The position numbers and the translations under genes are program-made. Below, in pieces: positions 29,615 through 33,422 of a stretch of 64,000 bases of DNA. The notes under the pieces were generated by a model, which saw nothing but the letters and a program-made list of their open reading frames with translations, ran no database searches and was not told the DNA's origin. Origin of the DNA: an uncultured archaeon (GTDB taxonomy: Archaea > Iainarchaeota > Iainarchaeia > Iainarchaeales > 1-14-0-10-31-34); assembly GCA_964442255.1 (NCBI GenBank), contig CAYTYC010000001.1:32694-96693 (forward strand). The letters run 5' to 3'. Numbering within the stretch: position 1 is the first letter of the stretch; each line of letters opens with the position of its first letter.

Positions 29615-31108
29615 GTGAAGGAATCAAATTTCATGGAATTAATGCTCAGGAAAAGCTTTTTTTTTCCTTCAGCCGAGATATATGGCTCTGGTTTTGGCGG
29701 CTTCTGGGATTTCGGGCCGTATGGAACTGCAATCAAAAGAAAAATTGTGGAATTGTGGAGAAAGGAGCTGGTGGAAAAAGAAAATTTTTTGGAGGTTGAC
29801 GGTTCGCTTGTCCTGCCGAAAGCGGTTTTTGACGCTTCAGGCCACAGCGCAAACTTCAACGACCCCTTAACGCAGTGCGGGAAATGCAATTCTCATTACC
29901 GTGCGGATTCCCTTCTCTCTGACCACGTGAACGTGAACTTTCCGGAGGGAACGCCCGCAGAAAAATTCGACAAACTGATAAAGGAAAACAAATTGCGCTG
30001 CCCGAAATGCAGGGGCGAACTTGGAAAAGTGAAAAGGTTCAATATGATGATGTTTTTGGAGATTGGCGCAACTGGAAAACAGCTTGGAGGATTAAGGCCT
30101 GAAACCGCGCAGAATTTGTTTTTGGATTTCAGCCGGATGTTCAAGAGCATGCGCCAAAACCTTCCGCTCGGGCTGGCGCAGTCCGGAAAGGCTTTCAGGA
30201 ACGAAATCGCGCCCCGCAATACTCTACTCCGCGCCCGCGAATTCGGGCAGATGGAAATTGAAATCTTTTTTAACCCCGAAAAAATAAATGAATGCGAAAA
30301 CTTCGGGAAAATGGAAAACGAAAAAATCCGCATACTTTCCCTTAATGAAAAAAAGGAAAAGGTGTTGCGGGCAAAGGATTTGGTGGACAAAAAAATTGTT
30401 TCCGGAAAACTTGTTGCGTATTACATTGCGCGTTTGCAGGAACTTTACCTCGCTTATGGAATTCCTTTCGCTAAAATGCGTTTCCGTGAAGTTGGAGTGG
30501 ATGAGCGCGCCTTTTACTCAAAGGAAACATGGGACTTCGAGGTTGAAACCGGGTATGGCTGGATTGAACTGGTTGCGTGCAATTACCGCGGAGACTATGA
30601 TTTGAGAATGCATGGAAAGGGCTCGAAAAAGGATTTGAAGGTTAAGGAGGACGGAAAAGAGTTTGTTCCGCACATCTTTGAGCTTTCCGCTGGCCTGGAC
30701 AGGGCCTTTTTTGTTGTTCTGAACCTTTCCCTGCGCGAGGAAACCAAAAAAGGGGAAAAACGCATTTTGTTGGACATCCCTTCAGCGCTCGCCCCTTTTA
30801 CGTGCGGGGTTTTCCCTTTGGTTAAAAAGGACGGCTTGCTTGAAAAGGGGCTGGAAGTTTTTGAATTGCTTAAAGAAAACGGTTTGGATGCAGTGTTTGA
30901 TGAAAAGGGCTCAATCGGCAGAAGGTACGCGCGTGTGGATGAACTAGGGTGCCCGTATGCTGTAACCCTTGATTATGATTCTTTGGGGAAAGAGGATGTA
31001 ACTATCCGTGAAAGGAATTCCACGGAACAAAAGAGAGTGAAAATCAGGGAACTCCCGGAATTGTTGTGGAGGCTTGGGAACGGGAAAATAGTCTTTAAAG
31101 ATATTTAA
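29615..31108 (+). CDS. glyS: Glycyl-tRNA synthetase (alpha2 type)
   Basis: LRPETAQ, FRNEIAPR, REFGQME, SIGRRYAR. Confidence 0.96.
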   Translation: MKESNFMELMLRKSFFFPSAEIYGSGFGGFWDFGPYGTAIKRKIVELWRKELVEKENFLEVDGSLVLPKAVFDASGHSANFNDPLTQCGKCNSHYRADSLLSDHVNVNFPEGTPAEKFDKLIKENKLRCPKCRGELGKVKRFNMMMFLEIGATGKQLGGLRPETAQNLFLDFSRMFKSMRQNLPLGLAQSGKAFRNEIAPRNTLLRAREFGQMEIEIFFNPEKINECENFGKMENEKIRILSLNEKKEKVLRAKDLVDKKIVSGKLVAYYIARLQELYLAYGIPFAKMRFREVGVDERAFYSKETWDFEVETGYGWIELVACNYRGDYDLRMHGKGSKKDLKVKEDGKEFVPHIFELSAGLDRAFFVVLNLSLREETKKGEKRILLDIPSALAPFTCGVFPLVKKDGLLEKGLEVFELLKENGLDAVFDEKGSIGRRYARVDELGCPYAVTLDYDSLGKEDVTIRERNSTEQKRVKIRELPELLWRLGNGKIVFKDI

Positions 31109-31113
31109 GTCTT

Positions 31114-31329
31114 TTATGGGCCGGCTTGCGCCCTTTTCCTTTTTCTTGTTTTTGCCCCTATTGGAGGGGCGCGGTCAAGGCTTTGCAGTGCTTCAACTAT
31201 TTTTGGCTGCAGCGGTCTTCCGGGGGGCGCTTCTGAAAGCACTCTTCCCAGTGCCCTGATCTCCCTGAATGCCATGCCTTTTGTGGTTCTGTTGCCTCCC
31301 GCATTTTTCTTGGCTGCTCTTCTTTGCAT
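31114..31329 (-). CDS. Small basic orphan protein
   Basis: MQRRAAKK... 71 aa. Confidence 0.45.
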   Translation of the reverse strand: MQRRAAKKNAGGNRTTKGMAFREIRALGRVLSEAPPGRPLQPKIVEALQSLDRAPPIGAKTRKRKRAQAGP

Positions 31330-31361
31330 TTTAAAACCATTATCTATTATATTCAAAGCCA

Positions 31362-31369
31362 TTTAAATA
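31362..31369 (+). promoter_or_regulatory. TATA box upstream of tRNA 5' fragment
   Basis: TTTAAATA about 25 nt before 31394; could also serve the divergent ORF. Confidence 0.55.
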
Positions 31370-31393
31370 CTTCTTTTGCCTAATTTCTACTGC

Positions 31394-31406
31394 GCCCTTG
31401 TAGCTC
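31394..31406 (+). pseudogene. 5' fragment (nt 1-13) of a tRNA-Thr-like gene
   Basis: GCCCTTG-TA-GCTC; first 7 nt complementary to CAAGGGC at 32600-32606. Confidence 0.65.
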
Positions 31407-31410
31407 TTTT

Positions 31411-31482
31411 GCCGCAGTAGCATAATGGTAATGCTCCGACCTCGTAAGTCGGTGATTGGGGGTTCGATTCCCCCTTGCGGCT
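31411..31482 (+). tRNA. tRNA-Thr(CGU)
   Basis: complete 72-nt cloverleaf, CCGAC-CT-CGT-AA-GTCGG, discriminator U. Confidence 0.95.
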
Positions 31483-31596
31483 CTTCACAGGAAATCTCCT
31501 CCCTTTCCAAAAGTTAATAGCCCTAAAAGCTGTTTTTTAATTGTGACTTGAGTTTATTTTGATTCTGAAACTGTAAGGGATAACTTCTTTAAAAAT

Positions 31597-32553
31597 TTGA
31601 AGAGCTATGGAAAGTTTAGGACTTGGCGTGAATTTTATAATCATATTAGCGAAGCAAAAACTTCAATGGAGAATTATAGGTCCGGTCAATGGACTATTCC
31701 TTCCCGCCTTTTTGACAAATTGTGTGATTTGCTTCCTAGTCACTTGGAAAAACTCTTTAAATCCAAACTAAACTATAAGACTGGTAATTGGGGGCAAATC
31801 ATTGGCGGGAATATAACGTATGGTAAACACCAAGATATTTTTGAAAAGGGGCGTGCTATTGCAATCGCGAAACAAAAAGAAAATCCAAAACATGACTTTG
31901 ATTTGGATATGGAATTGACTGAGGGGCTAAGCGAATTTATCGGTTGTTTTATTGGAGATGGTTTCACTAACAATTATGGCGGAAAATATGTGGTGCAATT
32001 TGCGGGAGACAATCGATTTGATGCAGACTATTATGATGGGACAATTATTCCAATAGCCCGTTCTTTATTTGGTTTTGATAAAGCAGGCATTCGCCGTAGT
32101 GGGAATGCTTTGTGGGTTAGTTTTTATTCTAAAAGACTTTTTGAGTTTCTTACTACTGGGTTTGAGATGCCTGCTGGACTAAAATTTAACCGGGTTAGAA
32201 TTCCTGTTGAAATTCTTGAGTCGGGTCCGGAAAAAATAATCCCTTGTATTCGAGGCATGTTTGATACTGATGGTTGCGTTTTTTACGATAAACGACCGGC
32301 TTATCGTAGACCTTATATTAGAATCGAGTTAACAATGCGTAATCCCTTTTTGATTAGGCAGGTGCATTACCAGCTTAAAAAGATCGAGGTTAGGTCAAAA
32401 GTTCTTTCTGATGAGACTAGGCTGCAGATAACGGCAAGAGAGGACGTTAAGCTGTTTTTGCAGAAGATAGGGTTCTCAAACAAACGGCATAGAAACCGAA
32501 TAACCAGATTTTACCCTGAATTGGAAAAGATTACGAAGGCTAAGGGGTCTTAG
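31597..32553 (+). CDS. Two-motif LAGLIDADG homing endonuclease
   Basis: LSEFIGCFIGDG and CIRGMFDTDG motifs; T-rich codon style unlike flanking genes. Confidence 0.9.
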   Translation: MKSYGKFRTWREFYNHISEAKTSMENYRSGQWTIPSRLFDKLCDLLPSHLEKLFKSKLNYKTGNWGQIIGGNITYGKHQDIFEKGRAIAIAKQKENPKHDFDLDMELTEGLSEFIGCFIGDGFTNNYGGKYVVQFAGDNRFDADYYDGTIIPIARSLFGFDKAGIRRSGNALWVSFYSKRLFEFLTTGFEMPAGLKFNRVRIPVEILESGPEKIIPCIRGMFDTDGCVFYDKRPAYRRPYIRIELTMRNPFLIRQVHYQLKKIEVRSKVLSDETRLQITAREDVKLFLQKIGFSNKRHRNRITRFYPELEKITKAKGS

Positions 32554-32570
32554 CTTGGGTTAACCGGAGC

Positions 32571-32607
32571 AAAGCGCAGGCCGGGGGTTCGACTCCCTCC
32601 AAGGGCT
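32571..32607 (+). tRNA. Orphan 3' half (nt 37-73) of a tRNA, probably Thr
   Basis: AA-AGCGC-AGGCC-GGGGG-TTCGACT-CCCTC-CAAGGGC-T; no contiguous 5' half. Confidence 0.8.
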
Positions 32608-32727
32608 TTTCACGGGAAATGTGCCCTTTCCAAACAATGTTAAATCCGGAAGCCCTTTTTCTATCGAAGCGAAAGTTTAAATTAACTTATTGCGTTAATT
32701 AACTTTACATGTTAACTAAGTGGTCCG

Positions 32728-33057
32728 GTGGAAAAAGAGAAAACCTTCCCGAAGTATCTGGATGCACAGGGAAAAGACTTAATCCACGGGAGGTTTGAAA
32801 GAAACAGGGAAGGAAAACCCAAGGCTTTCAGCGTGAACTGCACCTGCGAACTGGAAGGCAAAAACATGGAAATAATCCGTTTTGACTCTTCCCATGGGAG
32901 TGTTTACGTCCACAGGCTTTACAAGAAGCCGCCGAGAATTGAAGTGCTTGGAAAGGAGGTTTCATTTTCAACAATAAATGAATTTGTTTTGGAGATTGAA
33001 GAAAGTTATGGGGTCTGGAAAAAGGCTTTCATTAGAAACTATCTGAAAGGTGATTGA
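32728..33057 (+). CDS. Putative TA-type small protein (RFDxxHG..H motif)
   Basis: EIIRFDSSHGSVYVHRLY; coupled to an HTH gene. Confidence 0.6.
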   Translation: MEKEKTFPKYLDAQGKDLIHGRFERNREGKPKAFSVNCTCELEGKNMEIIRFDSSHGSVYVHRLYKKPPRIEVLGKEVSFSTINEFVLEIEESYGVWKKAFIRNYLKGD

Positions 33058-33059
33058 GT

Positions 33060-33422
33060 ATGGCGAGAGAAGGTAAAGCGGTTATACGGATTGGAAGGAA
33101 TGCGTTAAGCAGGGATTTGATGAAACTGGAGAAGAACAGGAAAGCGAATTGCCCTGAACAGGTGATTTACTTCAACGACTTTAACCAGCTTTTCTCTGTT
33201 TTGTCCGCAAAAAAACTGGAGTTGCTGCAGCACCTGTCCGGGAAAAAAGGAAAAAACGTTTCATTCCTTTCAGTTGAACTGAAAAGGAAGAAAGAGGCCG
33301 TGAGCAGGGATTTGCACGAGCTTGCAAGAACAGGGCTGATTGAAATAATAAAAGACGGAAAGAAAGCCTACCCGAGAAACAAATTTGACAGGCTGGAGAT
33401 TCCGTTAAAGATGAGGGCGTAA
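33060..33422 (+). CDS. HVO_A0114-like winged-HTH protein (putative antitoxin)
   Basis: VLSAKKLELL..ELKRKKEAVSRDLHELARTGLI. Confidence 0.75.
   Translation: MAREGKAVIRIGRNALSRDLMKLEKNRKANCPEQVIYFNDFNQLFSVLSAKKLELLQHLSGKKGKNVSFLSVELKRKKEAVSRDLHELARTGLIEIIKDGKKAYPRNKFDRLEIPLKMRA

Follow-up and report, generated by a model that had tools for sequence, protein, structure and literature searches.

The described elements closest to the one reported here are the mORF gene hybrids of fungal mitochondria, in which a free-standing endonuclease gene lies within a host gene, a foreign duplicate of the displaced part of that gene has been brought in with it, and the native part is left downstream, nearer in sequence to the genes of relatives than is the inserted copy. 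Such hybrids are described for atp6 of Allomyces macrogynus and for atp6, atp9, cox2 and nad3 of Glomus (PMC3630166, where Paquin et al. 1994 is cited for them). A second comparison is offered by phage T4, whose free-standing endonuclease SegB is encoded within a group of tRNA genes, has a tRNA-gene sequence as its recognition site and, according to the abstract, drives its own inheritance together with that of the neighbouring tRNA genes, a process named 'intronless homing' (PMC2330249). Among the Archaea, Sugahara et al. (2012) described in Caldiarchaeum subterraneum a 5' tRNA-Thr fragment followed by a 1,868-bp insertion with an 813-bp open reading frame (ORF) and then by a complete tRNA-Thr(GGU), a copy of the insertion also being present beside tRNA-Thr(CGU); the authors regarded it as a transposable element or a pNOB8-type integration involving a 'DNA recombinase', and the word LAGLIDADG appears nowhere in their paper (PMC3293823). 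The present work concerns a 64,000-nucleotide stretch (hereafter the window) of contig CAYTYC010000001.1 from an uncultured archaeon of the Iainarchaeota (GCA_964442255.1), in which a resident tRNA-Thr(CGU) gene has probably been invaded by a mobile cassette composed of a complete tRNA-Thr(CGU) and a free-standing, single-chain LAGLIDADG homing endonuclease gene.

The locus is anchored upstream by the conserved glyS gene (glycyl-tRNA synthetase, 29615..31108; Pfam tRNA-synt_2b and HGTP_anticodon), which, like all features of the locus given below, is on the plus strand. Read from the letters, a TATA-like box of the resident tRNA gene (TTTAAATA, 31362..31369) stands 25-32 nucleotides (nt) before 31394, the first base of a 5' stub, GCCCTTGTAGCTC (GCCCTTG-TA-GCTC, 31394..31406), which corresponds to nt 1-13 of the resident tRNA-Thr(CGU). 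A TTTT spacer, likewise read from the letters (31407..31410), leads to an intact tRNA-Thr(CGU), the putative replacement borne by the cassette, at 31411..31482 (ARAGORN, 31411-31483; Rfam tRNA, 68.1 bits, E 3.2e-14, 31411-31482). This inner tRNA is the single tRNA-Thr(CGU) called by ARAGORN across the 51 contigs of the source genome (G000), a metagenome-assembled draft of 1.28 Mb, and its acceptor stem is of the GCCGCNG type, like those of the inner tRNAs in G033, G007, G008 and G005. It is followed by a 37-nt upstream element linked to the endonuclease gene (31484..31520), which reads TTCACAGGAAAT..CCCTTTCCAAAAGTTAATAG and includes an inverted repeat (TTCACAGGAAAT..CCCTTTCCAAA) and a TATA-like AAAGTTAATAG, and then by the free-standing two-motif LAGLIDADG gene itself (31597..32553; 318 amino acids from a TTG; Pfam LAGLIDADG_3, E 1.4e-7). 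Nineteen nt of non-tRNA sequence (32554..32572), by homology to G007 a relic of the former C-terminal coding sequence of the endonuclease, separate the gene from a 3' stub, AGCGC-AGGCC-GGGGG-TTCGACT-CCCTC-CAAGGGC-T (32573..32607), which represents nt 39-73 of the resident tRNA-Thr(CGU), including U73. A second, degenerate copy of the upstream element, recognised by alignment, lies directly behind the stub (32608..32647) and has no endonuclease gene after it.

All the elements listed in the original prediction are thus present in the window. The acceptor strands of the two stubs are complementary, CAAGGGC (32600-32606) pairing with GCCCTTG at 7/7 positions, and neither the 13-mer 5' stub nor the 34-nt 3' piece has a second copy in the 1.28-Mb genome. 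The piece described at the outset as a clean 3' half starts at nt 38/39 rather than at a half-boundary; the anticodon loop is missing, and the part from the D-loop to the anticodon (nt 14-38) was not found between the stubs. The cassette, about 1.17 kb in length, is bounded by nt 13 of the resident gene on one side and nt 39 on the other, and that gene survives in the flanks as the promoter, the first 13 nt and the last 35 nt. Between the stubs the LAGLIDADG gene is the only gene: no other ORF there has a family match, and no integrase is present.

The origin of the stubs could be traced by comparison with relatives in the order of Candidatus Iainarchaeum (DPANN), of which nine genomes made up the family set. 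In eight of the nine, glyS is followed by tRNA-Thr(CGU). Four of these eight glyS-linked loci (G001, G002, G003, G006) hold an uninterrupted tRNA gene and no endonuclease gene, three (G000, G007, G008) hold the cassette, and one (G005) retains an incoming-type tRNA and a 3' stub but has lost the endonuclease gene; the element is therefore sporadically present and absent at one homologous site among close relatives. The native gene of G001 begins GCCCTTGTAGC and ends ..GGGGGTGCGATTCCCTCCAAGGGCT, while G026 and G037, of the same order, carry uninterrupted GCCCTTG...CCCTCCAAGGGCT genes, so that the uninterrupted glyS-adjacent tRNA expected of relatives was found in G001, G026 and G037. The 5' stub of the window agrees at 13/13 positions with the first nucleotides of the intact G037 tRNA-Thr(CGU), and the 3' stub matches the native gene of G026 at 33/36 positions and that of G001 at 30/36, as against 27/35 for the inner tRNA of its own locus. 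The same relation is found in two congeners of G001, which have, in this order, an inner tRNA-Thr(CGU) of the GCCGCCG type, the endonuclease gene and a 3' stub: the stub of G007 agrees with the G001 native gene at 32/35 positions and with its own inner tRNA at 23/35, that of G008 at 27/28 and 19/28, respectively, and the downstream flank of G008 is, by eye, similar to that of G001. On these alignments, the stubs are best identified as the remains of the resident tRNA-Thr(CGU) gene that normally lies 3' of glyS. The suggestion that the outer tRNA is also a tRNA-Thr was correct and can be narrowed to the same isoacceptor, CGU.

The inner tRNAs have a different affinity. Those of G007, G008 and G005 are mutually identical at 73-75 of 76 positions, and against the native gene of their congener G001 they show 48-49 matches. 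Homologous 3' stubs stand behind the endonuclease gene in G007, G008 and G033, and a T-rich stretch directly 5' of the incoming tRNA recurs in G007 (TTTT) and G033 (CTTTTGCT). The first nucleotide of the stub varies between genomes, from nt 27 (G192, G182) through nt 32 (G007) and about nt 39 (window) to nt 44-47 (G033, G008). The endonuclease gene of G008 contains a frameshift and an early stop; this decay and the loss of the gene from G005 are stages expected of the life cycle of a homing endonuclease. The layout itself, the empty sites and the decayed or lost endonuclease genes are all present among the relatives.

With regard to the mORF hybrids, the features that define that kind of element are found here: a working copy, the intact tRNA-Thr(CGU), is supplied inside the gene, with native nt 1-13 and 39-73 kept outside, and in the window, G007 and G008 the native part is nearer to the native gene of relatives than to the inserted copy. 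As those hybrids are described, their hosts are protein-coding mitochondrial genes in which the C-terminal part alone is duplicated, in frame (PMC3630166), whereas in the window the host is a chromosomal tRNA gene of an archaeon, the copy supplied is a whole gene, and a stub is left at either side. SegB differs in being a phage enzyme of the GIY-YIG type whose target is a T-psi-C stem-loop motif, and a broken tRNA gene with a replacement copy nested in it is not mentioned in the abstract (PMC2330249). The Caldiarchaeum locus shares with the window a 5' tRNA-Thr fragment, an ORF-bearing insertion and a restored tRNA-Thr; compared by its published description only, it has the ORF upstream of the restored tRNA, unlike the window, and corresponds to the second of the layouts distinguished below (PMC3293823). 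The original prediction had known of no description of a homing cassette that brings its own replacement tRNA. Full-text searches, with subscription journals outside their coverage, likewise found no archaeal tRNA-homing LAGLIDADG cassette, but the mitochondrial and T4 elements are analogous. What appears to be new, judging from the sequence, is a free-standing LAGLIDADG endonuclease that would target an archaeal tRNA-Thr gene, comes with a whole replacement tRNA and leaves both ends of the resident gene as stubs.

The window ORF is predicted to encode a single-chain, two-motif protein of the LAGLIDADG homing endonuclease type. Its two motifs, LSEFIGCFIGDGFTN and IPCIRGMFDTDGCVF, both carry acidic residues, and G120-D121-G122 and D225-G226 are invariant in nine orthologues. 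Searched by sequence alone, the solved structures yielded only weak matches (PI-PfuI, E 2.4e-4). The AlphaFold2 model (predicted local distance difference test, 88.5) has the pseudo-dimeric alpha-beta-beta-alpha-beta-beta-alpha fold of the family, and with Foldseek it found 142 PDB matches at E <= 0.001, including I-DmoI (TM score 0.73, normalised on the target), I-Tsp061I (0.69) and intein endonucleases (E 2e-10). The protein thus shares its fold and its two catalytic motifs with I-DmoI, I-Tsp061I, PI-PfuI and the TliVMA intein; however, enzymes of the I-DmoI type ride in self-removing rRNA introns or inteins, whereas the gene in the window is free-standing and accompanied by a spare host gene. 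The model also shows an additional helical N-terminal region of about 100 residues (residues 1-100) relative to those enzymes. The ORF stands alone, within neither a self-splicing intron nor an intein, with no intron family matched at E up to 10.

Both ends of the endonuclease gene have been altered. At the 5' end the reading frame is open from 31552, and homologous coding sequence can be followed for 15 codons before the TTG but includes no start codon; the proteins of relatives have about 20 residues at the N-terminus that are absent here. At the 3' end, GGTTAACC..GGAGCAA, which follows the TAG stop, aligns with TTTTAACCCCGGAACAA, with which the G007 ORF closes; a deletion of 13 nt in the window, as measured against G007, has taken away the anticodon loop and with it the former stop codon. 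Since the sequence after the stop is homologous to the last codons of G007, the occurrence of TAGCT at both junctions, which the original prediction had remarked upon, is a matter of chance. For the same reason we discarded the notion that GCTTGGGTTAACCGGAGC, after the stop, is a D-arm joined at TAGCT to give a tRNA without an anticodon arm.

A draft assembled from a metagenome could in principle have fused two tRNA-Thr loci. Two public sequencing runs of one study contain the stretch, X1, which may be the source sample, and X2, which is another sample. Separately assembled contigs cover 31376-32505 and 32507-32700 in X1 and 31300-31456 and 32483-32700 in X2, so that both junctions are bridged in two samples with 0 differences at the junctions, and the same architecture occurs in other genomes (G007, G008 and G033 among them) and in further public records. 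Because contigs of two samples bridge both junctions, a chimera can be regarded as practically excluded. The sole variant in the stretch is an A/G at 32506 in the X1 contigs (depth 3.7 of 7.1), which indicates strain heterogeneity inside the endonuclease gene.

The association with tRNA-Thr extends well beyond the family. A pattern scan based on the alignment found 316 relatives of the endonuclease in public genomes, and the counts that follow refer to the best 80 of these 316, from genomes named Candidatus Iainarchaeum, Woesearchaeota, Pacearchaeota, Nanoarchaeota, Aenigmatarchaeota, Micrarchaeota and others. With a tRNA-Thr profile built from 74 distinct sequences, which can match other tRNAs too, a match abuts or overlaps the ORF in 79/80 loci, the exception being a contig that ends inside the ORF; the proposal that homologous endonucleases would be found beside tRNA sequence was borne out in this respect. 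Intact tRNA-Thr genes are present at 75 of the 79, and at L066 and L073 the upstream tRNA is of another kind. Three layouts can be distinguished. In type 1, as in the window, an intact tRNA lies upstream (26 loci by automatic sorting, 29 after reading by eye); in type 2 an intact tRNA on the same strand overlaps the end of the ORF (23 and 30); and in type 3 the tRNA is antisense to the end of the ORF (16 by either count). Fifteen loci were at first unsorted and five remained so, three having been moved to type 1 and seven to type 2.

Stubs recur among these layouts. In 16 type-2 loci, an nt 1-15 stub (typically GCCTCTGTAGCTCAG) and then a TATA-like box lie immediately upstream of the endonuclease gene. 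A regular expression for the stub matched in nine type-1 loci: an nt 1-15 or 1-18 stub is found upstream of the gene in L057, L061, L068, L069, L072, L077, L078 and L108, and the ninth, L065, is doubtful. All of these eight but L057 have the nesting seen in the window, with the stub before the intact tRNA; the order in L057 is intact tRNA, 5' stub, endonuclease gene and 3' stub. The left edge of the insertion thus falls nearly always in the D-loop, at nt 13 in the window and at nt 15 in most others.

Many of the ORFs run into the tRNA itself. In type 2 the stop codon lies within the D-loop of tRNA-Thr(GGU); an intact tRNA-Thr(GGU) shares its first 10-56 nt with the ORF in L081, L084, L088, L089, L092, L095, L098 and L101, among others, with further cases in L105, L106, L110, L112, L116, L121 and L123. 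The overlapping ORFs take their stop from the D-loop of tRNA-Thr(GGU), and that of L091 from the anticodon loop. With the stop codon of the endonuclease inside the tRNA, 5' processing of the tRNA would therefore cut the stop off the mRNA. In 16/80 loci (L076, L083, L085, L086, L093, L096, L099, L100, L102-L104, L107, L109, L113, L119 and L120) the last codons of the ORF are antisense to the 3' part of tRNA-Thr(GGU or UGU).

The source genome has a paralogue on contig C4 (10400-12800, locus L132; 37.5% identity over 309 amino acids), where the order on the minus strand is an intact tRNA-Thr(GGU), the endonuclease gene in antisense, the upstream element and a 15-nt 3' tRNA stub; G027 has a convergent layout like it. 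ARAGORN calls the tRNA Ser(GCU), but by eye it is a tRNA-Thr(GGU) in which nt 37 is followed by an intron of 16 nt. The 3' end found in the stub, which is reversed, recurs in a longer form (..GGTTCGACTCCCGCCAGAGGCTTGC) about 750 bp from it, and a small ORF is enclosed between the two copies. Contig C31 encodes a third homologue of the LAGLIDADG protein, more weakly similar (24% identity, E 5e-10), at 358-1230 on the minus strand, about 200 nt upstream of a tRNA-Ala(CGC) on the same strand.

Within the order, the four closest homologues in other genomes (L002-L005) all have a tRNA-Thr(CGU) 130-220 nt upstream on the same strand (4/4). When 30 loci were instead chosen by similarity to a tRNA-Thr(CGU) alone, comprising 17 tRNA-Thr(CGU) and 13 tRNA-Thr(UGU) by ARAGORN, an endonuclease gene was found behind 6/17 of the former and 0/13 of the latter; the G184 locus retains an N-terminal relic, consisting of the first codons of the endonuclease only. 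The genus g33 is polymorphic, with the endonuclease gene present in G037, G186, G192, G182, G180 and G187 and absent from G191, G193, G194, G195, G190 and G183. By eye, G193 and G194, which have no endonuclease gene, carry a native gene and flank that agree with the stub of G192 (47 nt) and the sequence downstream of it. The ORF of G192 ends ..CCAGTTTCGTAA|ACTGGAGGTC..CGGAGGCT, its stop being nt 36-38 in the anticodon loop of a stub that starts at nt 27, and the TAA of the ORF occupies nt 36-38 of the stub in 3/10 cassette loci of the order (L003, L023 and L026; genomes G192, G182 and G007).

Six g33 loci (L013, L014, L023, L026, L035 and L036) share some further traits. The ATG of the endonuclease lies 4-5 nt past the 3' end of the tRNA, GGTTTTCC, 5' of the tRNA, pairs with GGAAAACC at the start of the ORF, and an extra leader of about 60 nt containing a hairpin (GGAACCAAYGGCG..GGGGTTCC) is placed between promoter and tRNA. 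In G183 (L022) a leader of this g33 type is present and the endonuclease gene is absent.

From the manner in which LAGLIDADG and free-standing homing endonucleases work, a mechanism can be proposed for the cassette. The endonuclease would cut tRNA-Thr(CGU) genes that lack an endonuclease gene, at some point from the D-loop to the anticodon arm, and the break would be repaired from a cassette-bearing copy, with the promoter and 5' region on one side and the 3' tRNA part with its downstream flank on the other serving as homology arms. Because the cassette-bearing copy would be the template, the tRNA and the endonuclease gene would be copied in together. The incoming tRNA would keep the cell supplied and would presumably escape cutting; it would be driven by the resident promoter, its 17-nt leader (stub and TTTT) being removed by RNase P, and the endonuclease gene would be served by its own upstream element with the TATA-like box. 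This corresponds to the first reading of the original prediction, a homing cassette with a replacement tRNA, and fits the uninterrupted glyS-linked genes, the affinity of the stubs and the recurrent, polymorphic layout.

A number of points weigh against it. Both the cleavage target and the resistance of the incoming tRNA are putative, and the model presupposes that DNA can pass between DPANN cells. A simple rule by which a change in the D-arm gives immunity was tried and fails, because the cassette-linked intact tRNAs of G037, L081 and L112 keep the GCTCAG D-arm that is also found in stubs. The joint transfer of tRNA and endonuclease gene is not cleanly demonstrated for the window, whose inner tRNA, as aligned, matches the inner tRNA of G033 at 57 positions and the native gene of G001 at 56. 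The endonuclease gene in the window lacks its ancestral start and C-terminal end and, since that start and about 20 N-terminal residues are gone, may be decaying, in which case the cassette would perhaps be immobile here. No stub at all is found in 3/10 cassette loci of the order (L013, L014 and L036), and in L035 there is a short relic by eye. Finally, the 80 surveyed loci were picked by similarity of the endonuclease, and the relatives are kin rather than independent samples.

Other explanations of the locus have to be set beside this one. The intact tRNA would be a resident paralogue if tRNA-Thr(CGU) had undergone a local tandem duplication and the endonuclease gene had then entered one of the two copies, with decay of that copy afterwards. 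The order in L057 fits insertion into the second copy of such a pair, and the window's inner tRNA is about as close to the native gene of its own family as to the inner tRNA of another cassette. However, in the window, as in the type-1 loci with a 5' stub other than L057, the broken gene encloses the intact one, the inner tRNAs of G007, G008 and G005 are near-identical to one another but unlike the native gene of their congener G001, which the stubs of G007 and G008 do match, and none of the endonuclease-free genomes examined has a tandem pair at the locus; we regard this history as unlikely. An intact tRNA, an element and a displaced 3' tRNA piece, as seen at the two ends of this locus, are also the classic footprint of integration into tRNA genes, and an element of the integrase or transposase type using the tRNA gene as its attachment site would leave a similar arrangement. 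Integration of this sort was proposed for the tRNA-Thr(GGU) insertion in Caldiarchaeum (PMC3293823). In the window, however, the sole gene between the stubs encodes the LAGLIDADG protein and not an integrase, the repeated tRNA parts have diverged (27/35) and are not identical attachment cores, the element is only about 1.1 kb, the entire tRNA has been replaced, the 5' acceptor strand included, and the stub boundaries shift from nt 27 to nt 44-47 between genomes, all of which makes integration an improbable account.

The pairing of the stub acceptor strands might alternatively mean that the pieces are joined as RNA, either as a functional split tRNA or across a giant intron encoding an endonuclease, as the other two readings of the original prediction had it. 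Split tRNAs are known in Nanoarchaeum, another DPANN lineage, and ARAGORN in intron mode predicts many intron-bearing tRNAs in the source genome. Against a trans-spliced 3' half, nt 14-38, the anticodon among them, are absent from the locus, no partner piece was found in the genome, where a search for a GCGCT..AGCGC anticodon arm hit a single place, a palindrome on contig C6 that registers on both strands and is not a tRNA, and the genome already has an intact tRNA-Thr(CGU). Against an intron, the would-be exons lack nt 14-38, homologous stubs start at different tRNA positions where a conserved split position would be expected, and neither a group I intron, with its ribozyme core, nor any other RNA family is matched in 31000-33000 at E up to 10. 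We consider joining of the pieces as RNA highly improbable, and invasion by a homing cassette remains the preferred interpretation.

The invasion seen today may not have been the first. The upstream element (TTCAC.GGAAA..CTTTCCA and a TATA-like box) is common to the endonuclease genes of G000 (twice), G027, G011, G007 and G008, and was not present behind the uninterrupted native tRNAs of G001, G002, G003 and G006. In its regular-expression form it occurs at only three sites in G000, the third being the copy directly after the 3' stub of the window (32608-32647), which can be aligned both with the element at 31484-31520 and with its counterparts before other endonuclease genes; tblastn found no endonuclease remnant downstream of it. 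As this orphan element follows the 3' stub, it is probably a relic of an earlier cassette that lay behind the resident tRNA, which suggests repeated rounds of invasion and decay, that is, serial invasion of the locus. The motif after the inner tRNA (ACAGGAAATC) had also been considered as a decayed form of the ATGGAAAAYC start of genus g33; the alignment favours a separate, conserved upstream element instead.

Some further observations concern the surroundings of the locus and the tRNAs of the source genome. The spacer between glyS and the tRNA (31109-31393) is 285 nt in the window, against about 30-130 nt in other family members, and its sole content is an antisense ORF of 82 amino acids with no family match. 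Directly 3' of the locus, 32728-33422 on the plus strand holds two overlapping small ORFs, of which one matches DUF7718 (E 1.9e-5, slightly under the Pfam cut-off) and the other an HVO_A0114/MarR-like helix-turn-helix protein (E 1e-17); they may form a two-gene module. The introns that ARAGORN predicts in the many tRNAs mentioned above would be about 80-220 nt in length, for instance in Gly(GCC) (221), Gly(CCC) (216) and Pro(GGG) (187). Two predictions were set aside as artefacts: a tRNA-Leu(UAA) on contig C1, which with its supposed intron of 2,137 nt would span several genes, and a tRNA-Thr(AGU) on contig C3 that crosses an N gap.

To our knowledge, interrupted, fragmented and split tRNA genes of the Archaea have long been blamed on mobile elements, with no clearly identified agent. 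Here an agent is visible: a homing endonuclease gene within a tRNA gene, with both stubs, the empty site in relatives and the stages of decay. It is conceivable, although we put it at somewhat less than an even chance, that these cassettes constitute one large, undescribed family of tRNA-homing LAGLIDADG elements across the DPANN archaea, possibly of the same kind as the 'transposable element' of Caldiarchaeum, which continually replaces tRNA-Thr alleles by horizontal transfer. If so, the family would build overlapping protein and tRNA coding sequences, with stop codons in the D-loop or the anticodon loop, and the scattered 5' and 3' stubs would be a testable source of fragmented, split and oddly interrupted archaeal tRNA genes. 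The locus also illustrates how a selfish element can strike an important single-copy gene without the shelter of an intron or intein, by carrying a spare copy of the gene. It implies that tRNA alleles in archaea with tiny genomes may be exchanged horizontally as passengers, and it points to a pool of natural LAGLIDADG enzymes presumably directed at a highly conserved target.

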